From an uncultured Gammaproteobacteria bacterium (lineage in GTDB: Bacteria > Patescibacteriota > Microgenomatia > UBA10105 > UBA927), in assembly GCA_964527425.1 (NCBI GenBank), contig CAZGOA010000003.1:29941-93940 (forward strand): a DNA stretch of 64,000 nt, in the 5' to 3' direction. The position numbers and the translations under genes were made by a program. The notes under the pieces are model-generated. The model was given only the letters and a program-made list of their open reading frames with translations, was not told the origin of the DNA and did not search any database. Numbering within the stretch: position 1 is the first letter of the stretch; each line of letters begins with the position of its first letter. Positions 24,332-63,716 of the stretch are shown piece after piece.

Positions 24332-24346
24332 AACTTAACTCCTTTG

Positions 24347-24431
24347 TGCCAAGGGAGGGACTCGAACCCTCATGACCTGTTATAGTCACAGGTTTTTGAG
24401 ACCTGCGTGTCTACCATTCCACCACCTTGGC
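24347..24431 (-). tRNA. tRNA-Leu (anticodon CAA), type II with long variable arm
   Basis: The reverse complement, GCCAAGGTGGTGGAATGGTAGACACGCAGGTCTCAAAAACCTGTGACTATAACAGGTCATGAGGGTTCGAGTCCCTCCCTTGGCA, folds as a cloverleaf with anticodon loop CTCAAAA and GGTTCGAGTCC T-loop. No CCA is encoded. Confidence 0.8.
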
Positions 24432-41921: not shown

Positions 41922-43241
41922 TTATTCTATGGGGAATGTACTGCACAATGCTTTGACCTCTTTGGCAATTGAAAGGAATGCTTTGTTCTGCCAGACTTCT
42001 TCTTTAAACGTTTTCAGCCACTTTATACGTTCTGTTTTTTCTACTGGCAGATGGTAAGACGTACTTGCTTTGATAACTTGATCTATCCACTCGGCTATTT
42101 GCAGCATTTCTTGTGTTCTCATACCTCTGGCTGTAATAGCTGGTGTACCAAGTCGAACTCCTGATGGATAAAACGGTGAGGCAGTATCATGAGGAACCGT
42201 ATTTCTGTTGGCAACAATGCCTGCTGCTTCTAATGTTTCTGCAACAACAGTGCCTGTTAGGTTTTGTGGTCTTAAATCTACAACCATTAAATGGGTATCT
42301 GTTCCTCCGGTTGAAATAGTGTAGCCTTTTTTCATTAATGCTTGAGAAAGTGTTTTTGCATTATCTATCACTGCTTGTGCATATTCCTTGAATGCTGGAG
42401 TTTGAGATTCTTGTAACGCAATGGCAATTCCGGCTGTTACATTGTTGTGAGGACCTCCCTGGAGTCCTGGAATAATAGCTTTATCTATTGCTTCTCCCAT
42501 TTTGGGATCTTTTTCTAACCCTTCTTGAGTGACTAAAATAATAGCCCCTCTTGGTCCTCGCAAACTTTTGTGAGTCGTCATCATGACGACATGTGCATAT
42601 TCAACAGGAGATGGAATAACGTGTGCTGCTAATAATCCGGATAAATGTGACACATCGGCTACTAACAACGCTCCAATACTGTCTGCAATCTTGCGAAATC
42701 CTTTCCAATCCATCAGACGTGGATAGGCTGTAGTACCAATCATAAGCAGTTTTGGCTGTTCTTTTTTGGCAAGCTTTGCCACTTCTTCCATATCGATCAT
42801 GCCTTGTTCATTCACATCAAACTGTACAGATCTGAAGTATCTTCCTGAAAACGTAACTTCTGGATGACCATGAGTTAAATGCCCACCTCCTGAAAGTTTT
42901 AGTCCCATGACAGTGTCTCCTGGATTGACTAAAGCAAAGTAGATAGCACTATTTGCTGGGCTACCTGAATATGGTTGAACGTTTGCAAAGGGAACAGTAA
43001 ATACTTTTTTCGCTCTTTCGATAGCTAATAATTCTATTTCATCTATATATGTATTTCCTTGATAGTATCGTCTATTGGGGTATCCTTCTGAGTATTTATT
43101 GCCTAATACGGATCCGACTGCTTCTCTGACTGCCGGGAGGGCATAATTTTCACTGGGGATCATCATGAGGGTATCTTGCTGTCTTTGTTCTTCGAGGGTA
43201 ATGAGTGATGCGATATCAGGATCAACAGTTTTTAACTTCAT
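41922..43241 (-). CDS. glyA: serine hydroxymethyltransferase
   Basis: PLP-Lys region TTHKSLRGPRGA and overall SHMT similarity. Confidence 0.9.
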   Translation of the reverse strand: MKLKTVDPDIASLITLEEQRQQDTLMMIPSENYALPAVREAVGSVLGNKYSEGYPNRRYYQGNTYIDEIELLAIERAKKVFTVPFANVQPYSGSPANSAIYFALVNPGDTVMGLKLSGGGHLTHGHPEVTFSGRYFRSVQFDVNEQGMIDMEEVAKLAKKEQPKLLMIGTTAYPRLMDWKGFRKIADSIGALLVADVSHLSGLLAAHVIPSPVEYAHVVMMTTHKSLRGPRGAIILVTQEGLEKDPKMGEAIDKAIIPGLQGGPHNNVTAGIAIALQESQTPAFKEYAQAVIDNAKTLSQALMKKGYTISTGGTDTHLMVVDLRPQNLTGTVVAETLEAAGIVANRNTVPHDTASPFYPSGVRLGTPAITARGMRTQEMLQIAEWIDQVIKASTSYHLPVEKTERIKWLKTFKEEVWQNKAFLSIAKEVKALCSTFPIE

Positions 43242-43301
43242 ATTGAGACTATAACAAATTTTTTCTATTTAGGAAGTGGGATTATTGATAAGTAAATCGT
43301 C

Positions 43302-43826
43302 TCAACTGCCAAGTAAGACACTTCTAATGGTATTATCAGCAAAAGTTTGTTTAGAAAACTCGTATATTAATTGAGGATTTAAGTGAGATAAGTAATACAT
43401 GACAATAAACTGCTTTATTTCTCCTTCAGCATCTATCGATGTTGCAAACGTGAAAAAAAACGAAGGTAAATTGCCATCAAATGTACGGGGTTTACTATCT
43501 GGTATAGATTCCTCATCAACATGTGCTACTAGTTCAAGGTTAAAGATTGTATCCAGATATCCCTGCATAACAGCACTTCTGACACTACTAGGAAAATTTT
43601 CTACATAGAAAATACCTAACTTAATTTCTTTTTCTCCAGTAAAGCTAACTATAAAATCGAGAGAAGTTGTGACTTGAGTTCTATCATCAACAATCAACGT
43701 ATCCCCTGTAATTACAAATTTATCGTATCGATCACCAGAAGGTTTTCCATATTCGATAGCATGAATTAATGCCAGAAGTTCATTCCCTTCAAGCGGGGTT
43801 TGAGAATCTTGTTCTTTCTGACTCAT
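43302..43826 (-). CDS. hypothetical protein
   Basis: 174 aa ORF with no family recognised. Confidence 0.4.
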   Translation of the reverse strand: MSQKEQDSQTPLEGNELLALIHAIEYGKPSGDRYDKFVITGDTLIVDDRTQVTTSLDFIVSFTGEKEIKLGIFYVENFPSSVRSAVMQGYLDTIFNLELVAHVDEESIPDSKPRTFDGNLPSFFFTFATSIDAEGEIKQFIVMYYLSHLNPQLIYEFSKQTFADNTIRSVLLGS

Positions 43827-43921
43827 ATAAAAAGATTAAGTAAACGTACTAATTTGTACGTTAAATAATGTGGAAGTATAACATATGAAGGTGTTATAAA
43901 AAACACAAACTAGATTCTGTA

Positions 43922-44644
43922 TCAGAGTATTTGGTGATTTGTTAATGCTGAAATAATCTGTTTATGAATAACATCTTTAGGGAAAATATCGTTATCCTTA
44001 CAGCATTCGATAGTAACCCAATGACTGGTTTTTGCTAGTTCTCTATAGACTTTTTCTACTTCTTTTAAAAATTCTACATTTGCTTCGTGGATATCTTTTT
44101 TATCTGTCCCTAAATACTCACGTTGAGCTTTTTGTTCTATGAGTGTTTGAGAAACTGAAAACGGGACATGGAGATATAAAACCAGATCTTCTTTGGGAAT
44201 ACCAAACTGGTTATATTCCATATCAAAACTCCAATCAATAAACTTCTGCCTTTCTGACTCTGGAAGTTTAGCCCCCTGATACGCTGCGTTTGATGTTGCA
44301 TACCGATTAACTATAACGAGTTTGCCTTCTGAAAGTGCTTGATTGATTTCTTCTTTTGCCTGCCAGCGGTCTGCTGCATACGGAATACTGATAACGTATG
44401 GTGGAATATCGTTTATATTTCCAAATTCTCCTTTTAAGAATCTGCCTGCAAATGCTCCAAAAAAAGTTTTGTAGTACTGAGGAAAATCAAATGACTGATG
44501 AGGAATATTGTTCTGCTTGCAATGTTCTATTAGCAAAGAAAGTTGAGTACCCTTCCCTGCTCCATCGCTGCCTTCTATAACGATGAGTTTTCCTTTCTGT
44601 TTGTTCACATACTGATTTATACAGAGTTCTGAAACAGAGTACAA
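43922..44644 (-). CDS. thymidylate kinase-like nucleotide kinase
   Basis: P-loop LIVIEGSDGAGKGTQ and a downstream DRW...NAAYQG block resembling Tmk. Confidence 0.5.
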   Translation of the reverse strand: MYSVSELCINQYVNKQKGKLIVIEGSDGAGKGTQLSLLIEHCKQNNIPHQSFDFPQYYKTFFGAFAGRFLKGEFGNINDIPPYVISIPYAADRWQAKEEINQALSEGKLVIVNRYATSNAAYQGAKLPESERQKFIDWSFDMEYNQFGIPKEDLVLYLHVPFSVSQTLIEQKAQREYLGTDKKDIHEANVEFLKEVEKVYRELAKTSHWVTIECCKDNDIFPKDVIHKQIISALTNHQIL

Positions 44645-45553: not shown

Positions 45554-46804
45554 TTGAGACTACAGTATTATCCCCTGTGGTACATATCCATGGGTGTAAG
45601 TCTTAAAGAACGAAGTTTATTTAATCTTTTTTTCCAGGAAATTCAACCTCGTTATGGATCTCATTTCCCAGAAATAACTCTCAGTAGTGTCGGTTTTATG
45701 CCAGAGGTGGAGTATATGGATTATGAGGTTTCTGTACTTGAGCAACTTGCTAATAAATCAGGCACGTACACTCCCATTGAAACTCTGAAACGACCGACAA
45801 AAATACAGCTTTCTTTGTCTTCTATGGAACAGATAATTCCATATTTACTGCATCGTTTATATGGCAGAGACTATCAGGAAGTTCATCCATTGTCAGATCA
45901 AGCTCTCAAGGCAGTTTATAGGGGAAATCTGCTTCATGTATTTCGAAGTGCTGTAGGTGCTGCTCAGGAAATGGAAAAAGGGAGAACACTCAAGCAGATT
46001 TTTCCGACCAAGCAACCAATGTATTTACTTCCTTTTGAAACACTGTTTAGCCATTCCAGATATGATACTACCTCGCCAAAAGACATCAGTAAACTTTGGA
46101 AAATGGTAAGTACTACAGATCTATTTATCAGCAATAGAAGTCTTCCGATGTTTCAGGGTATGGGATTTATCAACTACCCATCGATGGTTACTTATTACAA
46201 AAGCCGAGAGTTTCAACGTTTTGGAAGTGAATACATTGACTATGTACTCTCAGATGAACTACCACAAACCAATTCTGATAGGTCAAAACAATATTTTGAA
46301 CTAGATATCAGTATGATATTTGAAGAACTGAAATTGCAGCTACTACTCACGCTTGATCATGTAACAGTCAACTATGCTCCCAACAAAGAAGGAACACTTG
46401 TAATGAAAAACATTAAGGCAACTGATCTTAAAAGTGGACGCTTACATTTTTACGATCCAGTCAGTTATGAAGTATTTCTCCATCAGACAAGTCTTATGGA
46501 TTTTGCTGTGCTTTGTGCAACAAGTTCTCTTGCAAGCGGCAAACTAGAAACGGTTACTCCTCCAAGACCACTGATTCTTCGGCCTGCTCTAAGAAATTTC
46601 GATACAATGAAGCAACATCATGCATTTTCCTACCTTTATACCGGAAGTACTCCGTTTCAAACACTTGATTTTCATCATTCTGAACAATCTATACAAAATT
46701 TTCGACAATTTTTACATCTATTTAGTGGAGCAATATATACGTATGAAAATGATGTTCGAAATTTGCTGTCAAAACTGAGAAAAAGTAGAAGAAATAACCG
46801 CTAA
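45554..46804 (+). CDS. hypothetical protein
   Basis: 416 aa ORF immediately downstream of the HD protein. No family recognised. Confidence 0.45.
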   Translation: MRLQYYPLWYISMGVSLKERSLFNLFFQEIQPRYGSHFPEITLSSVGFMPEVEYMDYEVSVLEQLANKSGTYTPIETLKRPTKIQLSLSSMEQIIPYLLHRLYGRDYQEVHPLSDQALKAVYRGNLLHVFRSAVGAAQEMEKGRTLKQIFPTKQPMYLLPFETLFSHSRYDTTSPKDISKLWKMVSTTDLFISNRSLPMFQGMGFINYPSMVTYYKSREFQRFGSEYIDYVLSDELPQTNSDRSKQYFELDISMIFEELKLQLLLTLDHVTVNYAPNKEGTLVMKNIKATDLKSGRLHFYDPVSYEVFLHQTSLMDFAVLCATSSLASGKLETVTPPRPLILRPALRNFDTMKQHHAFSYLYTGSTPFQTLDFHHSEQSIQNFRQFLHLFSGAIYTYENDVRNLLSKLRKSRRNNR

Positions 46805-46945
46805 ATGTATGACATGATACTCATTTTTCAATCAGTGTATATGATATGCATTAATAGTTCGATTGGGTAGTAAACTAGTACCAATATATTATTCGTTTGA
46901 GTTATTGGGTATACGTATGTATGAGTATGGCAAAATTTTGCCGTA

Positions 46946-46954
46946 TGGTATAAT
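46946..46954 (+). promoter_or_regulatory. extended -10 promoter element TGGTATAAT upstream of the glmS leader
   Basis: A perfect TGnTATAAT about 65 nt upstream of the structured leader and about 370 nt upstream of the glmS ATG. Confidence 0.35.
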
Positions 46955-47021
46955 TTAGGAGTAAATCAGTTTCTGTATCATTTTTACTGTAGAAAAAGGA
47001 GGTTTAGAAGCAACAAAAACA

Positions 47022-47195
47022 ATAAGAGCGTGTGGTCCGTCTTCTTAGACGGAATACGAGGAAAGGGCCCCTATGGGGAATCGAACCCAAGATAAACTCT
47101 TGGAGAATCAGCGGAAACCCTTCGGTTGTAACGTACAATCGTGACAAATGACTAAAATCTTTCTGGTAACAGATTGGACAAAGGTTTTTTGAATA
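47022..47195 (+). ncRNA. structured 5' leader of glmS; candidate glmS ribozyme/riboswitch
   Basis: Five perfect or near-perfect hairpins (CCGUCU-ucuu-AGACGG, CCCC-uau-GGGG, GGG-aaucgaa-CCC, CCAAGA-uaaac-UCUUGG, GUUGUA-acg-UACAAU). ACGAGGAAAGGG plus the downstream CCCUUCGG resembles the glmS-ribozyme GACGAGGAGGAGG...CCUCC pseudoknot. GGACAAAGG resembles the conserved UGAACAAAG. Confidence 0.3.
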
Positions 47196-47322
47196 CGTTT
47201 GCTTCTTTATACTACTCATTACTACGATTTATCTTTAACGTATCTTGGAAGAATAATTGCTCAATTACTGCGTCCTAACATGAGGAATGTAATTATTCTG
47301 CAAGATACTCGACTTTACCTAT

Positions 47323-49101
47323 ATGTGTGGAATATTTGGATATGTTGGTCCTAAAACAAATGCTGCAAATGTAATCCTGAAAGGGTTGAAAACGCTTGAG
47401 TATAGAGGGTATGACTCCTGGGGTGTTGCTGTGGTTCCAAAAGACCCGAAAAAGCAGCATATTATGCTCAAAAAAAAGTCAGGGAAAATTGGTGATGCAA
47501 CGGTAACAGATTTGCCTGCTTCATCTTTTGGATTTGGCCATACTCGATGGGCTACGCATGGGGGTGTCACAGATGTAAATGCTCATCCTCATGTGGATTG
47601 TACGAAAAAAATCGCCATTATTCATAATGGAATCGTTGAAAATTATGAACAGCTAAAAGAAAAATTATCAAAAAAAGGTCATACATTTTCTTCTGAAACT
47701 GATACAGAAGTGATTGTCCACTTGATTGAGGAATATGCAAAAAAAACAATGTTTAGTAAAGCGGTACAAAAAGCCTTTAATGAATTGGTAGGATTAAATG
47801 CAATTATTGCTATTAATACTATTGACCAGGTTTTTGTTGCTGCGCGTAATGGATCCCCCTTGGTGATTGGATTTGGTGAGGATGAAAATTTTTTGGCGAG
47901 TGATGCTGCTGCAATTATTCCGTACACAAAGCAGGTTCACTACTTAGAAGATGGTGAAATGGCTCTGGTAGGAAAAAGTGGAGTTTCTATTTTTGAAGCC
48001 AAAACTGGCAAAAATATTCATCCGAAAAAACAACTCTTAACATGGACTGTTGCACAAGCAGAAAAAGGGAGATATCCATTTTTCATGTTAAAAGAAATTC
48101 ATGAACAACCTGGGATATTGGTTGATATAGCAACTAATAGTGTAAATCACGCAGAACATTTAGCCAATGCTATTAAACATTCATTTGGTGGATATTTAAT
48201 TGGCTGTGGGACTGCTGCTTTTGCATGTATTGCTGGCACATATTTATTTTCCAAAATTGCTAAGCGACATATGAACTGGGCTATAGGGAGTGAATTCCCC
48301 TATTCTCAAGATTTTTTGACGGGAAAAAGCTTAGTGATTGCTTTGTCTCAGTCAGGCGAAACCATGGACACCATTGAGGCTGTAAAGCAGGCTAAACAGA
48401 AAGGGGCAACCTTGGTTGCGATGGTAAATGTTTTGGGATCAACGCTGTACCGTATGGCGGATCACAAAATATTGCTTTCTGCTGGTCCAGAAAAAGGTGT
48501 TGCCTCTACAAAAGCGTTTACTGCCAAACTTGGTCATTTGTTATTACTTGCTACTGCGCTTGATAATAATGTCTCCTACGGAAAAACGTTAGTACTACAT
48601 GCGGCAAAAGCAACTCAAAAGATATTAAGAAAGGAGAATCGAGCAAAAATTGAGGAACTAGCTAACAAGATTATGAAGACTCCTCATATATATGTTGTAG
48701 GAAGGGGTCTTTCCTACCCTGCTTCTCTTGAAACAGCTCTGAAGATAAAAGAAATTTCTTATATTCATGCTGAAGGGTTAGCGGGTGGTGAGTTAAAACA
48801 TGGGGCTTTAGCGTTAGTTGAGAAAGGAACACCCTGTATTGTGATTGCACCACCTGATGAAACATATCAAGATACGCTGGCTGGGGCAATGGAAATGAAA
48901 GCGAGAGGTGGATATATTATTGGTCTTTCTAATAAACCACATGATGTGTTTGATTATTACTTACCTGTTCCGTATGTGCAGGAGGCAACTATTATTCCCA
49001 ATATTGTGACAGCACAATTATTGGCATATTACTTAACCATTCATAAAGGATTTGACCCTGATAAACCAAGGAATTTGGCTAAGAGTGTGACGGTAAAGTG
49101 A
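47323..49101 (+). CDS. glmS: glutamine--fructose-6-phosphate aminotransferase
   Basis: N-terminal MCGIFGYVG (Ntn Cys) followed by two SIS domains. Confidence 0.9.
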   Translation: MCGIFGYVGPKTNAANVILKGLKTLEYRGYDSWGVAVVPKDPKKQHIMLKKKSGKIGDATVTDLPASSFGFGHTRWATHGGVTDVNAHPHVDCTKKIAIIHNGIVENYEQLKEKLSKKGHTFSSETDTEVIVHLIEEYAKKTMFSKAVQKAFNELVGLNAIIAINTIDQVFVAARNGSPLVIGFGEDENFLASDAAAIIPYTKQVHYLEDGEMALVGKSGVSIFEAKTGKNIHPKKQLLTWTVAQAEKGRYPFFMLKEIHEQPGILVDIATNSVNHAEHLANAIKHSFGGYLIGCGTAAFACIAGTYLFSKIAKRHMNWAIGSEFPYSQDFLTGKSLVIALSQSGETMDTIEAVKQAKQKGATLVAMVNVLGSTLYRMADHKILLSAGPEKGVASTKAFTAKLGHLLLLATALDNNVSYGKTLVLHAAKATQKILRKENRAKIEELANKIMKTPHIYVVGRGLSYPASLETALKIKEISYIHAEGLAGGELKHGALALVEKGTPCIVIAPPDETYQDTLAGAMEMKARGGYIIGLSNKPHDVFDYYLPVPYVQEATIIPNIVTAQLLAYYLTIHKGFDPDKPRNLAKSVTVK

Positions 49102-50574: not shown

Positions 50575-51141
50575 TCATTCTTCCCCTATCTTACTTGCAA
50601 GTGGGCTCTTTTGTCCAACATATTTGGCTGACTTTTTTTTGTAGTATGGTACTTCTGCAGGGCTGGTTAACTGCATGAAAGAGAGTGAACAGATGCGCAT
50701 ACCTGGATGAAGCATGACAGGAATTCTCCCCATGTTTGCTAATTCGAGGGTGATGTTTCCTCTGAATCCGCATTCAATATTGGCTGCGGTTGAGTGCACT
50801 ACTATTCCTAATCTTCCTATTGATGATCTACCTTCTAAATGACCGGTTAAGTCATCGGGCATTTCTATGTATTCCATTGTCATTGCTAAAACGAATTCTC
50901 CGGGATGCATGGTAAAGGCTTCACCATTTTTGACGGTTATTTCTGTGGTGACGTCTTTTAAAGTGGCTGGATTTTGCGGATCTAGATAGGGTGTTTTACT
51001 ATGATTAAAGACTCTAAACGAGTTACCTAAGCGTAAATCCAACAGACATGAGCCAAGCTGAGACTCCAAGTCTGGCTCCGGATTGATTATCACCTTTTTG
51101 TTTTTAAGAGCAATTTTGATATCTTTATCTGAGAGAATCAT
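50575..51141 (-). CDS. dcd: dCTP deaminase
   Basis: MILSDKDIK...; the length and conserved blocks match the dCTP deaminase/dUTPase fold. Confidence 0.85.
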   Translation of the reverse strand: MILSDKDIKIALKNKKVIINPEPDLESQLGSCLLDLRLGNSFRVFNHSKTPYLDPQNPATLKDVTTEITVKNGEAFTMHPGEFVLAMTMEYIEMPDDLTGHLEGRSSIGRLGIVVHSTAANIECGFRGNITLELANMGRIPVMLHPGMRICSLSFMQLTSPAEVPYYKKKSAKYVGQKSPLASKIGEE

Positions 51142-56305: not shown

Positions 56306-56442
56306 ATTCTATCATATCATGTCTGTCAATAAAGCACACGACTTGTGTTTTTGTGAACAGATGCTAGGGTTAATAAAAGGCTAAAAAATATAGATTCAAA
56401 TTGAACTCAAAATATAGAGTGATTAAAGAAAGGAGGTGAACT

Positions 56443-56607
56443 ATGACATATACACAACAAATATATAACCAAGATAATCGTGAACCGATTTTAGAAATAT
56501 GGAGAAAAATTAATGAACGTGAAGAACGTCAACAATCATCATTGAATATGAGCCAAGAGGATCATGTTGATGAGGGAGACATGACGTCTTCACCGTCCAG
56601 TAACTAA
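56443..56607 (+). CDS. hypothetical small acidic protein (54 aa)
   Basis: Not in the ORF track because it is under 60 aa. Strong SD AAGGAGGTGA 5 nt upstream of the ATG. A hairpin (CACTCGTATTG...CAATACGAGTG) and T-rich tract lie downstream. Confidence 0.35.
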   Translation: MTYTQQIYNQDNREPILEIWRKINEREERQQSSLNMSQEDHVDEGDMTSSPSSN

Positions 56608-56728
56608 TCTTCACGTTCACTCGTATTGTTTATGATTCAATACGAGTGATACTCGGACTTATTTTTACTTCTTATTTTTTTTATTTGTTTTCCTTCTTTA
56701 CAAGAAAACCTAACACTTCTAGAGTAAA

Positions 56729-57304
56729 TTGGTGATGCGTACTAAAAAAGGGAAATTAACGGTGGTTGCCGGTCCAATGTTTTCCGGAAAGACAACCAAA
56801 TTAGTTGGAATGGTAAAGGTGTTTGAAAAAATGGGCCATACTGTTTTGACTGTCAAACCTCTGATTGATGATCGCTACGGTGGTAAGCAAGAAATTCATT
56901 CTCATGATCATTTAACAACTAAAGCAATTGCGGTTGATGGAGAACCAGCTGAAGCAATTATTGAGAAAATTTTGGCGTTTAAACCAGACGATATTATTTT
57001 TGATGAAGTGCAGTTTTTTGACAGTGAAAAAATAAAGAAGGTTATTCTGGCACTTAAAAAAAAGAAAATTCATGTGATTGCCGCAGGTCTTTTGTATGAT
57101 TATCAGCGTAAACCGTTCGGAGCAACGGCGGATCTTTTGGGACTTGCTGATGAGCGACTTGAGTTATATTCTGTGTGTCAGAAGTGTGGTTCTATCGCCC
57201 GTCACAGTGAGCGGCGAAAAGGAAGTAAAAAACAAACGATTGATGTGGGGGCTAGTGACAAATACATTGCTGTATGTGAAAGCTGTCACAAGATATATAC
57301 ATAG
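56729..57304 (+). CDS. tdk: thymidine kinase
   Basis: VVAGPMFSGKTTKL P-loop and a C-terminal Zn ribbon (CQKCG...CESCH). The true start may be the ATG at 56735; the track ORF begins with TTG/GTG. Confidence 0.85.
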   Translation: MVMRTKKGKLTVVAGPMFSGKTTKLVGMVKVFEKMGHTVLTVKPLIDDRYGGKQEIHSHDHLTTKAIAVDGEPAEAIIEKILAFKPDDIIFDEVQFFDSEKIKKVILALKKKKIHVIAAGLLYDYQRKPFGATADLLGLADERLELYSVCQKCGSIARHSERRKGSKKQTIDVGASDKYIAVCESCHKIYT

Positions 57305-57361
57305 AAACATAACGAGTGTGACAATGTTGTATAAACGTTTTAAAACATATAAGGAGGAACT

Positions 57362-57550
57362 ATGAGTAATCCAGAAATTAAAAAAATTGGTGAAATTACT
57401 GAAGTTTTAGGAGAAAGCGGAATTGTTTACCAAAATATTCAAGCAAATGAAGGTGCGTTAGGTAGTAAAGTGGGTAAAGTAATAAGAGTGGATCCTAAAC
57501 AAGCTACAATTCATTATGAAGAGCAATATGATAAGCGATATGAAGAGTAA
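57362..57550 (+). CDS. hypothetical small protein (62 aa)
   Basis: Strong SD TAAGGAGGAACT before the ATG. Overlaps the start of the udp-like gene by ~11 nt. Confidence 0.4.
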   Translation: MSNPEIKKIGEITEVLGESGIVYQNIQANEGALGSKVGKVIRVDPKQATIHYEEQYDKRYEE

Positions 57551-58376
57551 TAATTCAGCGTTGGCTCCCAAAACTGCATCAGGCAAGCAATATCATATTC
57601 AGTGTGGTGAGGGTGATGTTGCACGGTATGTCTTAATGCCGGGGGATCCGGACCGGGTTCCCTTGATTGCTAAACAATGGAGTAATGTAAACGATTTAGG
57701 GAGGCATCGGGAATATCACACGATTACAGGTAGTACTGGTGGTGTGCCAATCAGTGGTACATCGAGTGGTATCGGTGGACCATCGCTTGCTATAGCTGTT
57801 GATGAACTCTACAGAATCGGGGTGGATACAATTATCCGCGTTGGGTCAACAGGAGCGTTACAAAAAGGCATGGAACTGGGTGACTTGGTGATATCTACAG
57901 GGGCTGTACGGTTTGACGGGACAAGTCGGGATTTTATTATGCCGGAATTCCCTGCTCTGGCTCATTATGAGGTAGTTATGGCGTTAATACAGGCATGTGA
58001 AGAATTACGAGTACGCTATCACGTGGGTGTTACTGCTTCAACTGATACGTTTTATAGTGGACAAGGAAGACCAGGATTTAAGGACTACTTCCCTACTTTT
58101 AAAAAGACAATCTTAGAAGATATGCAGGCTGCTGGTGTAAAAAACTTTGAGATGGAGGCTTCTACCTTACTCACTATGGCAACGCTGTTTGGCAAGCGAG
58201 CTGGTTGTGTGTGTTTTGTGGTTGCAAATAGAGTGACGAATGAATTTAAGATCACTGATGAGATGGCAAACACGGCTGGACGTGTGGCTACAAGAGCTGT
58301 AGAGTTATTGGCCTCTTGGGACGCATGGAAGAACAAACAGAAGAAAGACTTTTTATATCCCGGGATGATGAAATAG
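57540..58376 (+). CDS. uridine phosphorylase-like (PNP/UDP family) nucleoside phosphorylase
   Basis: PNP/UDP-family fold with Udp-like blocks (QCGEGDVARYVLMPGDPDRV..., RVGSTGAL, FEMEAS). The start is chosen at the third in-frame ATG. Confidence 0.7.
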   Translation: MKSNNSALAPKTASGKQYHIQCGEGDVARYVLMPGDPDRVPLIAKQWSNVNDLGRHREYHTITGSTGGVPISGTSSGIGGPSLAIAVDELYRIGVDTIIRVGSTGALQKGMELGDLVISTGAVRFDGTSRDFIMPEFPALAHYEVVMALIQACEELRVRYHVGVTASTDTFYSGQGRPGFKDYFPTFKKTILEDMQAAGVKNFEMEASTLLTMATLFGKRAGCVCFVVANRVTNEFKITDEMANTAGRVATRAVELLASWDAWKNKQKKDFLYPGMMK

Positions 58377-63588: not shown

Positions 63589-63644
63589 GAGTGCAATGAT
63601 GGGTTATGAACAAGTAAAGTTGAAGGCAGTGAATACTTTTTTAG

Positions 63645-63716
63645 TGGGTGTGCATAGAATCGAACTATGTACCTCTTTCTTATCAGGAAAGCGTTCTACC
63701 AATGAACTACACACCC
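63645..63716 (-). tRNA. tRNA-Ile (anticodon GAU)
   Basis: The reverse complement, GGGTGTGTAGTTCATTGGTAGAACGCTTTCCTGATAAGAAAGAGGTACATAGTTCGATTCTATGCACACCCA, folds as a 72 nt cloverleaf with anticodon loop CTGATAA. Confidence 0.75.

Follow-up and report, generated by a model that had tools for sequence, protein, structure and literature searches.

A glmS self-cleaving ribozyme, assigned by family match, architecture and covariation, in the glmS leader of a Patescibacteria (CPR) bacterium of the Microgenomates

The classical glmS ribozyme (RF00234), a well-known RNA switch responding to a sugar, as it occurs in the Firmicutes Bacillus subtilis and B. anthracis and in Thermoanaerobacter tengcongensis, lies upstream of glmS on the strand of the gene, and in B. 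subtilis its cleavage is followed by decay of the mRNA through RNase J1. Structural variants of the ribozyme with additional stems in the catalytic core were reportedly described outside the Firmicutes, in Deinococcus-Thermus, by McCown, Roth and Breaker in 2011. Escherichia coli also exerts mRNA-level feedback on the same enzyme in response to glucosamine-6-phosphate (GlcN6P), but its GlmY/GlmZ-RapZ system uses trans-acting small RNAs and RNase E, has no cis ribozyme, and bears no sequence or structural relation to the element analyzed here. The STAB-SD or polypurine stabilisers of Bacillus, found in the cryIIIA and ermC leaders, combine a strong Shine-Dalgarno (SD) sequence near the 5′ end with a long leader and no start codon, and in organisms that have RNase J a strong SD can stabilise mRNAs even when no start codon follows it (PMC3997798). 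For the Patescibacteria (CPR), which have tiny genomes, we found in the literature no report of a native metabolite-sensing RNA, and a recent perspective on the group brings up riboswitches solely as tools that might one day serve in engineering. Full-text literature searches likewise found no paper linking glmS ribozymes to Patescibacteria or Microgenomates.

We analyzed a 64,000-nucleotide stretch of DNA (the window) in which a reading of the sequence had proposed a possible glmS ribozyme upstream of glmS. Infernal, the check suggested with that original prediction, returned an RF00234 match at 47016-47201 (+) with 54.8 bits (E 6.3e-10), untruncated over model positions 1-167 of 167, against a curated gathering score of 37 bits; a Lachnospiraceae example scores 80.4 bits. 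No Rfam family other than RF00234 matched at E ≤ 1 in the 11-kb stretch around the leader. The architecture was recovered by an unconstrained fold of the leader, and the whole leader proved more stable than shuffled sequences (z = -3.07, with 0/200 shuffles as stable), as expected of the clearly structured cis element that had been claimed. Its sequence is the same in three independent public assemblies. The prediction had also noted that glmS ribozymes are classically Gram-positive, so that finding one would be informative for the lineage; the host is an uncultivated, ultrasmall member of the Patescibacteria (CPR), Microgenomates. By family membership, architecture, covariation and gene context, as read from sequence, the structured leader before glmS is a genuine glmS self-cleaving ribozyme (RF00234), and it is an instance of a known RNA family in a lineage for which we found no published report. 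The features of the locus are as follows.

46925-46946, + strand: terminator-like hairpin after the upstream gene, overlapping the -35 region (consensus match only)
46927-46954, + strand: predicted sigma-70-type promoter, ATGGCA-16 nt-TATAAT (10/12 matches, with TG extension)
46996-47002, + strand: orphan SD AAGGAGG, candidate 5′ mRNA stabiliser (motif scan; function putative)
47006-47013, + strand: 5′ strand AGAAGCAA of a candidate closing helix, P0 (unconstrained MFE and centroid folds)
47027/47028, + strand: predicted self-cleavage site A(-1)/G(+1), aligned to the consensus A/GCGCC (the slash marking cleavage)
47029-47032, + strand: P2.2 pseudoknot 5′ strand CGUG, pairing with 47110-47113
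47036-47053, + strand: P1 hairpin of 7 bp with loop UCUU (RF00234 alignment and fold)
47055-47062, + strand: J1/2 catalytic core strand UACGAGGA, classical GACGAGGA (RF00234 alignment)
47063-47067 and 47118-47122, + strand: P2 5′ strand AAGGG and 3′ strand CCCUU (RF00234 alignment and unconstrained fold)
47068-47078, + strand: inserted hairpin A, CCCC-UAU-GGGG, between P2 and the P2.1 3′ strand (unconstrained fold)
47080-47085, + strand: P2.1 3′ strand AUCGAA, B. subtilis U53-C54-G55-A56 (homology to the classical AUCGAA)
47087-47103, + strand: inserted hairpin B, CCAAGA-UAAAC-UCUUGG, an enlarged P2a (unconstrained fold)
47109-47117, + strand: CAGCG-GAAA, the P2.2 3′ strand and the cofactor-site counterparts (RF00234 alignment and PMC11602151)
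47123-47141, + strand: P3 hairpin, CGGUUG (47123-28) with CAAUCG (47136-41) and loop L3 UAACGUA (RF00234 and covariation)
47145-47191, + strand: P4-P4.1 domain (RF00234 alignment and covariation)
47194-47198, + strand: P3.1 pseudoknot 3′ strand UACGU, pairing with L3 at 47131-47135
47199-47206, + strand: candidate P0 3′ strand UUGCUUCU, directly abutting P3.1 and pairing with 47006-47013
47240-47308, + strand: long imperfect hairpin in the spacer between ribozyme and start codon (MFE -25.9 kcal/mol, z = -2.36)
47323-49101, + strand: glmS, glutamine--fructose-6-phosphate aminotransferase, 592 aa, starting Met-Cys (TIGR01135 631.6 bits, NF001484 652.2 bits)

The gene begins on the same strand 121 nt beyond the end of the match (47201 to the ATG at 47323); the downstream glmS had thus been called correctly, at a distance of about 130 nt that is here corrected. 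No SD sequence precedes its ATG, and SD sequences are hardly used in the genome of the window. Upstream, the perfect extended -10 that had been pointed out was found as TGGTATAAT at 46946-46954, with a predicted transcription start at about 46960-62. Since promoter-like sites in the surrounding 1-kb region are no more numerous than in shuffles, the promoter call is based on match quality and position only; relatives carry TTGACA-N17-TAGCAT or TACCAT at the equivalent position. The terminator-like hairpin has a 9-bp stem (GTATGGCAA-AATT-TTGCCGTAT), and the T-rich tail behind it is weak.

The window ribozyme has in common with the classical one its position and strand, the A/GCG site, the ACGAGGA core, P1, P2, P2.1, P2.2, P3/P3.1 and P4/P4.1, a purine-stack internal loop, and a GNRA L4 with a C-G receptor in P1; counterparts of the functionally critical residues listed in PMC11602151 are present. 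At the cleavage site A/GCG is kept, whereas positions 4-5 are UG and not the consensus CC, and this A/GCGUGUGG form occurs in all 31 ribozyme-bearing leaders, a motif that also served to collect them. The change from GCGCC to GCGUG gives P2.2 U.G and G.U pairs. In 22/22 sequences the C-G, G-C and U.G pairs of P2.2 are invariant, and the fourth pair is G.U in 20/22 but a G/A mismatch in the window and in L027, leaving the window with three pairs and a mismatch. P1 corresponds to the hairpin CCGUCU-ucuu-AGACGG (47037-42 / 47047-52) of the original prediction; its C47037-G47052 pair corresponds in the alignment to the conserved C-G pair that receives the L4 tetraloop, and the segment ranges from 18 to about 105 nt among relatives.

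The J1/2 strand is invariant in relatives except for its first base, which in the window is U and not the classical G. Within it C47057, G47058 and A47059 form P2.1 with 47081-47083; the B. subtilis equivalents A37, C38-G55, G39-C54 and A40 are described in PMC11602151. AUCGRA is kept in relatives, and the counterparts of C38-G55 and G39-C54 never vary, so that covariation speaks neither for nor against P2.1. A proposed hairpin GGG-aaucgaa-CCC was ruled out as a ribozyme helix by the RF00234 alignment and the fold, its AUCGAA (47080-85) being the P2.1 3′ strand. Similarly, the stretch described as core-like in 'AAUACGAGGAAAGGG ... CCCUUCGG' is the J1/2 catalytic strand, but the pairing taken there for a possible pseudoknot is the ordinary P2 helix, which covaries by changes on both sides in relatives (AGGGG:CCCCU, AUGGG:CCCAU and GAGGG:CCCUC). 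Beyond P2.2, G47114/A47115 correspond to the B. subtilis cofactor-site residues G67/A68 and are followed by AA where the consensus has UG, so that the junction reads GAAA and not GAUG; the equivalent of 47109-47117 in relatives is CUGCG-G-RNN, with GAAA in about ten of them. Altogether the window differs from the consensus at several highly conserved positions, with U,G for C4,C5, U for G36 and A,A for U69,G70, departures that are probably tolerated, most being clade-wide.

The two hairpins inserted in the P2 loop, which the classical ribozyme lacks, had both been picked out from the sequence (CCCC-uau-GGGG and CCAAGA-uaaac-UCUUGG), and both are recovered by folding without constraints, in the MFE as well as the centroid structure. 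The site of hairpin A, which is absent from the classical consensus, holds 38 nt where the RF00234 model expects 10, and was parsed at 2-41 nt in relatives; the hairpin B site was parsed at 5 to about 98 nt. Because of such insertions in the clade, 5 or 6 of 20 CPR ribozymes escape the Rfam model. The window is like the variants reported from Deinococcus-Thermus in having extra core stems and differs in lineage.

In the 3′ domains, P3 is 91.7% paired over 22 sequences, with three pairs changing on both sides. The proposed hairpin GUUGUA-acg-UACAAU is P3, wrongly extended into the loop that forms the P3.1 pseudoknot. P3.1 is 81.8% paired, with double-sided changes among relatives at 4/4 of its pairs; the two strands of the window are complementary over 6 bp, AACGUA (47130-35) with UACGUU (47194-99). 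P4 and P4.1 are 79.7% and 84.9% paired, respectively, with double-sided changes at all 14 pairs. The purine stack of the P4 internal loop comprises CUAAAAU (47152-58) and GACAAAGG (47177-84), and the core-like GGACAAAGG (47176-84) singled out earlier is the 3′ half of this conserved loop. The GNRA tetraloop is GUAA (47166-69); the roles of internal loop and tetraloop are described in PMC11602151, and the motifs present suggest that L4 would dock on the P1 C-G pair (C47037-G47052). Every sequence in the original list of helices is present, although some had been assigned to the wrong helix.

Comparison with the glmS leaders of relatives, also suggested at the outset, showed that the RNA is common to many of them and that P3, P3.1, P4 and P4.1 covary. 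The ribozyme was found in 30/61 relatives and is of the same type, with GCGUG in place of GCGCC after the cleavage site and extra core-loop hairpins; the other half of the 61 have no leader at all. In total 31 leaders have the core motifs in common, and 15 relatives give above-threshold RF00234 matches in the same position. Across 22 related leaders, 86.7% of helix cells are paired compared to 67.7% in shuffles (0/500), the fraction drops to 35-45% when the partners are slid, and 21/28 pairs, the P3.1 pseudoknot included, change on both sides. The median non-coding gap upstream of glmS is 401 nt at ribozyme loci and 12 nt in the ribozyme-less relatives. Even L034, the closest relative by GlmS (76% identity), is without the ribozyme, and its absence there and from half of the relatives indicates that it is dispensable in the lineage.

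Searches were also made in other collections. A three-block DNA pattern run against viral contigs gave, among the 120 matches listed, three real ribozymes (L212, L311 and L312). The metagenome pattern AGCGTGTGGN{12,42}ACGAGGA was too unspecific, 120 of the 120 matches listed being chance occurrences in GC-rich coding DNA. A search of viral contigs with the GlmS of L079 found no classical Firmicutes leaders, and the L079 ribozyme had no blastn match among plasmids.

Upstream of the ribozyme, the SD-like AAGGAGG that had been described as lacking an ORF is indeed an orphan, with no ATG, GTG or TTG 4-12 nt behind it. Of only 5 occurrences of the motif in the 64 kb, two serve small ORFs as true SDs, with 4-6 nt between motif and ATG. 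Among the ribozyme leaders 23/31 contain an SD-like 5-mer, against a background of 19%, and an SD-like leader tract was seen in 4/4 classical leaders examined. A leader peptide was rejected, since the CPR leaders conserve no start codon at a usable distance from the SD; in three classical leaders an AUG lies 3-4 nt after the SD tract, too close to serve. In relatives 6-10 nt separate the -10 box from the leader SD; the intact orphan SD of the window is about 36 nt away from the predicted transcription start, not at the extreme 5′ end. The window leader has the sequence hallmarks of a STAB-SD, a strong SD, complementary to the 16S 3′ end, near the predicted 5′ end with no start codon behind it, in a group of organisms that keeps RNase J, and would differ from the Bacillus stabilisers in being coupled to a ribozyme that cuts it off. 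Such an SD would stabilise the mRNA by binding the 30S ribosome as an obstacle to the 5′ exonuclease.

The window also departs from the classical ribozyme in the candidate helix P0 that would close leader and 3′ tail. Cognate leader-tail duplexes average -12.85 kcal/mol compared to -10.66 kcal/mol for non-cognate ones, and 0/20000 permutations reach the cognate mean; this test used short, position-defined blocks, as long leader and tail arms gave uninformative z-scores. Formal covariation of P0 is modest (80.7% paired versus 77.2% for shuffled sequences), and at each of the two proximal pairs 3 sequences show changes on both sides. We infer that the orphan SD and P0 may constitute a 5′ stabiliser that cleavage cuts off. 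Beyond this, we put forward tentatively, as possible though rather doubtful, that the CPR-type glmS ribozymes form a structural subclass of their own, in which a detachable module of 5′-end orphan SD and P0, protecting the 5′ end, acts as the expression platform and would be removed by cleavage besides the creation of a 5′-OH, and that the leader SD-like tract might be a general, overlooked part of glmS ribozyme function.

Taken as a whole, the leader is very probably a functional glmS ribozyme-riboswitch that exerts negative feedback on GlmS synthesis. Transcription from the extended -10 promoter (46946-54) would yield a leader of about 360 nt, in which 47028-47198 would fold into P1, the nested double pseudoknot P2/P2.1/P2.2, P3/P3.1 and P4/P4.1, with the two lineage-specific hairpins in the P2 loop. 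As GlcN6P, the product of GlmS, builds up, it would bind the core as catalytic cofactor and induce cleavage between A47027 and G47028; both this ligand and self-cleavage itself are presumed from family membership. The 5′-hydroxyl glmS mRNA would then be degraded by the 5′-to-3′ exonuclease RNase J, lowering GlmS. Cleavage would also detach the orphan SD (46996-47002) and the P0 strand (47006-13 : 47199-206), a module that would shield the intact transcript against decay from its 5′ end. The RNase J route and the stabilising role are both proposed by analogy. In PMC12641178, rnj is listed as one of the ribonucleases preserved in CPR, within a passage dealing with genes that at least 90% of CPR genomes retain. 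A Pfam scan of 10 window proteins detected no RNase J, and none of the remaining ORFs of the window is of the size expected for one.

The same parts would serve a different route if cleavage were classical but control mainly translational and not by RNase J decay, either because the anti-SD-like tail (47199-206) is freed or re-paired or because the leader SD is separated from the message. Such control would suit the pyrimidine-rich tail strand, the presence of an SD in the leader and the scarce use of SDs in the window genome. It would also suit at least nine relatives that enclose the glmS SD in a small UCUCC-GAA-GGAGG hairpin, and three relatives (L043, L065 and L019) in which only 9-15 nt separate the tail from an SD-less ATG. 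However, the glmS ATG of the window offers no SD for an anti-SD to sequester, the leader SD stays at least about 45 nt from that ATG even with all helices skipped, and it is present with or without the SD hairpin. An SD-like tract is carried also by the classical Firmicutes leaders, in the family on which RNase J1 acts as known from B. subtilis, and RNase J is among the enzymes preserved in CPR according to the passage cited above. We therefore regard translational control as unlikely. Two related schemes were rejected: a split ribosome-binding site, with P0 bringing the leader SD to the ATG, fails in the window on the distance just given, and the leader SD as an anti-anti-SD for the UCUCC-GAA-GGAGG hairpin is not a general mechanism, since the window and several relatives have a leader SD and no SD hairpin.

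It is very improbable that the element is a decaying or inactive relic, with family resemblance but neither cleavage nor regulation. Several highly conserved consensus positions are changed, P2.2 has a mismatch in the window, and about half of the relatives have lost the element, as a relic might lead one to expect; yet these departures are fixed throughout some 30 divergent loci, at which GlmS is only about 60-70% identical to that of the window, while the helices keep pairing via compensatory changes, which together indicate purifying selection on structure, and core residues and tertiary-contact motifs are intact. Hardest of all to credit is an active ribozyme responding to a cofactor other than GlcN6P owing to U4/G5 and GAAA for GAUG, for although the clade substitutions in P2.2 and in the strand after G67/A68 lie near the cofactor pocket, the regulated gene is glmS in every case, the residues contacting cofactor and scissile phosphate (G1, A37, C38-G55, G39-C54, G67 and A68) have unchanged counterparts, and the junction after G67/A68 varies freely in the clade (GGUA, GGUG, GAUG, GAAA and GAGA), which argues against a role in specificity.

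Existing knowledge of how glmS ribozymes work is unchanged by the finding of a probable functional ribozyme-riboswitch at this locus. For the biology of the organisms, it would mean that the cell-wall precursor GlcN6P is produced by at least some Microgenomates themselves, under regulation by RNA, and that they may have in common a logic of the Gram-positive type, with cleavage followed by RNase J decay and possibly with 5′ SD stabilisers. Within the group the ribozyme appears to be freely gained or lost, about half of the relatives being without it. It may also provide a candidate ligand-responsive part for genetic tools in CPR bacteria, which are hard to manipulate.

The original prediction held that a promoter and structured leader upstream of glmS might form a glmS ribozyme, and the refutation test named for it beforehand, a scan with RF00234, came out in favour of the ribozyme: a full-length, untruncated match (model positions 1-167) lies at 47016-47201 (+) and scores 54.8 bits against a gathering score of 37 (E 6.3e-10). 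It is one of three Rfam matches above gathering scores in the whole window, the other two being tRNAs, and a permissive rescan (E <= 1) of the 11 kb around the ribozyme found no further family. Since every sequence-level test of RF00234 membership was passed, the leader element is, as judged from sequence, a member of this known family. The following elements were assigned in the window:

47027/47028 (+): predicted cleavage site, between A47027 and G47028, from the Rfam alignment
47029-32 (+): 5' strand of P2.2
47036-42 / 47047-53 (+): P1, with loop UCUU
47055-62 (+): core strand UACGAGGA
47063-67 / 47118-22 (+): P2, AAGGG paired with CCCUU
47068-78 (+): inserted hairpin CCCC-UAU-GGGG, in the P2 loop on the 5' side of the P2.1 strand
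47080-85 (+): 3' strand of P2.1, AUCGAA
47087-103 (+): inserted hairpin CCAAGA-UAAAC-UCUUGG, in the P2 loop on the 3' side of the P2.1 strand
47109-15 (+): 3' strand of P2.2 and cofactor-site purines, CAGCG-GA
47123-28 / 47136-41 (+): P3, with loop UAACGUA
47145-91 (+): P4/P4.1, with internal-loop strands CUAAAAU and GACAAAGG and a GUAA tetraloop
47194-98 (+): 3' strand of P3.1

Each element listed as critical in a mutational scan of the B. subtilis ribozyme has a counterpart in the window, namely the P2-P2.1-P2.2 double pseudoknot, the A37.(C38-G55) triple, G39-C54, A40, G67/A68, the IL4 purine stack, P3/P3.1 and the L4 GNRA loop that docks on G33 in P1 (PMC11602151). The C47037-G47052 pair in P1 aligns with the conserved receptor pair. 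In the Rfam alignment, a stretch of 10 nt in the model is 38 nt long in the window, and the surplus corresponds to the two inserted hairpins. In an unconstrained ViennaRNA fold of 47004-47210, the MFE and centroid structures each contained P1, P3, P4/P4.1 and P2 together with the two inserted hairpins, and none of 200 shuffles was as stable (z = -3.07). Two details of the original prediction fell away: GGG-aaucgaa-CCC is no helix of the ribozyme fold, and what was read as a possible P2/P2.1 pseudoknot is simply the P2 helix.

The gene downstream, at 47323-49101 (+), is unambiguously GlmS (TIGR01135 631.6 bits, NF001484 652.2 bits) and begins with Met-Cys, as the amidotransferase requires. The extended -10 box (TGGTATAAT, 46946-54), the AAGGAGG without a start codon and the run of hairpins were all found in the sequence as predicted, and a promoter scan placed an ATGGCA partner at 16-nt spacing from the -10 box. 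The -35 region of this promoter coincides in part with a terminator-like hairpin at 46925-46946 (+), which follows the upstream ORF (45554-46804). The interval between the ribozyme and the glmS ATG holds a long, imperfect hairpin (47240-47308 (+), ~20 bp, -25.9 kcal/mol, z = -2.4), which lacks a U-tract and was ruled out as a terminator. Genes of nucleotide metabolism surround glmS and encode serine hydroxymethyltransferase, dTMP kinase and a dCTP deaminase-like protein (41922-44644 (-), 50575-51141 (-) and 56729-57304 (+)), one ORF resembles by eye a thymidine kinase through its GPMFSGKT P-loop, and genes for tRNA-Leu(CAA) and tRNA-Ile(GAT) are found at 24346-24431 (-) and 63644-63716 (-). 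Several neighbouring proteins matched no NCBIfam or Pfam family, and neighbours without assigned families are typical of Patescibacteria (CPR).

Of 39 relatives scanned with Rfam, 15 have an above-threshold RF00234 match immediately 5' of glmS, and anchoring on core motifs brought the number of ribozyme-bearing leaders to 31, including that of the window. All 31 of these leaders share, as a signature of the lineage, A/GCGUGUGG, the slash marking cleavage (classical form A/GCGCC), together with AUACGAGGA, AUCGRA and CUGCG-G-RNN. Rfam missed 6 of 20 complete ribozymes (L005, L008, L018, L021, L035 and L041), which have all core motifs and score below gathering; the sequence of L018 is interrupted by a stretch of N, and the other five have very large insertions in P1 or in the P2 loop. 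With five or six motif-complete ribozymes lost in this way, the public Rfam model under-detects the ribozymes of this clade. Hairpins of highly variable size occur at three sites in the CPR leaders, where the P1 segment spans 18 to ~105 nt and the segments preceding and following the P2.1 strand span 2-41 nt and 5 to ~98 nt, respectively.

We counted base pairs in an alignment of 22 leaders from which the hypervariable middle had been taken out. Standard pairs filled 86.7% of cells, compared to 67.7% in column shuffles (0/500 reached the observed value) and 35-45% with slid partners, and 21 of 28 pairs showed double-sided changes. P3 was 91.7% paired, P4 79.7%, P4.1 84.9% and P3.1 81.8%, with compensatory changes in all four pairs of P3.1. 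The first three P2.2 pairs were invariant (C-G, G-C, U.G); at the fourth, 20 sequences have G.U, and the window and L027 have a G/A mismatch. Compared to classical ribozymes, C5-G63 has become G5.U63, both sides having changed with pairing kept. P2 also covaries in relatives (AAGGG:CCCUU, AGGGG:CCCCU, AUGGG:CCCAU, GAGGG:CCCUC). The window ribozyme differs from the classical form in its P2.2 sequence, in three core or junction bases, in the two inserted hairpins and possibly in a closing helix. Variants with extra core stems were reportedly described by McCown et al. 2011 in Deinococcus-Thermus. Full-text searches of a partial literature collection, which leave novelty unproven, found no paper joining glmS ribozymes with CPR, Patescibacteria or Microgenomates, and a metagenome pattern scan for further ribozymes gave chance matches only.

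The putative closing helix joins AGAAGCAA (47006-13, just 3' of the orphan AAGGAGG) to the perfectly complementary UUGCUUCU (47199-206), which directly abuts the P3.1 strand, and it also appears in the unconstrained fold of 47004-47210. Corresponding pairs are AGAAGCGA:UCGCUUCU in L007, GGAAGCAG:CUGCUUCU in L001, GGGAGUAA:UUACUCCC in L013 and GAGAGCGG:CCGC(C)UCUC in many other relatives, and in 20 of 22 loci a distance of 12-16 nt separates the end of the leader strand from the cleavage site. Leaders pair better with their own tails than with those of other loci (-12.85 vs -10.66 kcal/mol; 0/20,000 permutations reached the cognate mean), and the two proximal pairs show G-C to A-U double changes, in three sequences each. 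The formal count in a gapless, sequence-anchored alignment was moderate (80.7% paired vs 77.2% in shuffles, 3/500; slid partners 40-70%). Since a purine and a pyrimidine strand can pair with each other in many registers, and many sequences are thrown out of register by bulges of one base, we call this helix a candidate, albeit a fairly probable one. No convincing equivalent was seen in the few classical leaders (n=4).

The orphan AAGGAGG (46996-47002) lies in a genome that hardly uses Shine-Dalgarno (SD) sequences: an SD-like 4-mer is present at -20 to -4 in 4 of 63 window ORFs (>=120 aa) vs 11% in random windows, and the glmS start codon is itself SD-less. Many starts lie 6-12 nt behind TATAAT-like boxes (e.g. 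4411, 30153(-), 51141(-), 58401), which suggests that leaderless or near-leaderless mRNAs are widespread. The motif is nonetheless recognised by the ribosome, since two of the five AAGGAGG copies in the 64 kb serve as true SDs for small ORFs, whose ATG codons (56444 and 57363) follow the motif after 4-6 nt. These ORFs (56430-56608 and 57351-57551 (+)) encode about 54 and 62 aa, and no other gene seen in the window is clearly SD-led. Of the 31 ribozyme leaders, 23 have a strong SD-like 5-mer, compared to 19% of random 63-nt windows. Its usual place in relatives is 30-41 nt ahead of the cleavage site and no more than 6-10 nt past the -10 box, which would put it right at the transcript's 5' end, and it is almost never followed by a start codon. 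In four classical (non-CPR) leaders (L079, L212, L311 and L312), an SD-like purine tract close to the promoter precedes the cleavage site by 30-55 nt; L079 has an orphan motif (TAAGGAGG, L079 2640-2660), and in the other three an AUG follows after only 3-4 nt. We infer that the leader fragment may act as a 5' stabiliser that is removed by ribozyme cleavage, a reading that the window's intact SD, ~36 nt from the predicted start site, fits less neatly than those of relatives. A conserved UCUCC-GAA-GGAGG mini-hairpin within the 25 nt before the glmS ATG, possibly a layer of translational control, encloses the glmS SD in many relatives (L004, L005, L006, L011, L013, L017, L018, L021 and L022) and is absent from the window.

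Going by family membership, the mechanism would be the classical one: glucosamine-6-phosphate would bind the ribozyme core and act as catalytic cofactor, the RNA would cleave itself between 47027 and 47028, and the 5'-OH glmS mRNA would then be degraded by RNase J. Such decay has been shown in B. subtilis (PMC5473149, PMC3997798), and a survey of >30,000 genomes mentions rnj as one of the ribonucleases kept by CPR, where it discusses genes that >=90% of CPR genomes retain (PMC12641178).

In a set of 185,579 species genomes, the best 68 GlmS loci (47-76% identity) all come from Patescibacteria MAGs, which mostly bear the names Gottesmanbacteria, Woesebacteria or Chisholmbacteria; Woesebacteria belong to the Microgenomates group of Patescibacteria (NCBI taxonomy). 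More than 30 third-party 'uncultured Gammaproteobacteria bacterium' assemblies (L004-L007, L009, L011 and others) are interleaved with Gottesmanbacteria and Woesebacteria by GlmS and ribozymes, and their label looks wrong. Among relatives with enough upstream sequence, the ribozyme is present in 30 and absent from 31, and the two groups separate cleanly by the median non-coding gap upstream of glmS (401 nt vs 12 nt). The closest GlmS relative, L034 (76% identity), falls in the ribozyme-less group. The ribozyme is thus real and selected where it is present, yet dispensable in the lineage.
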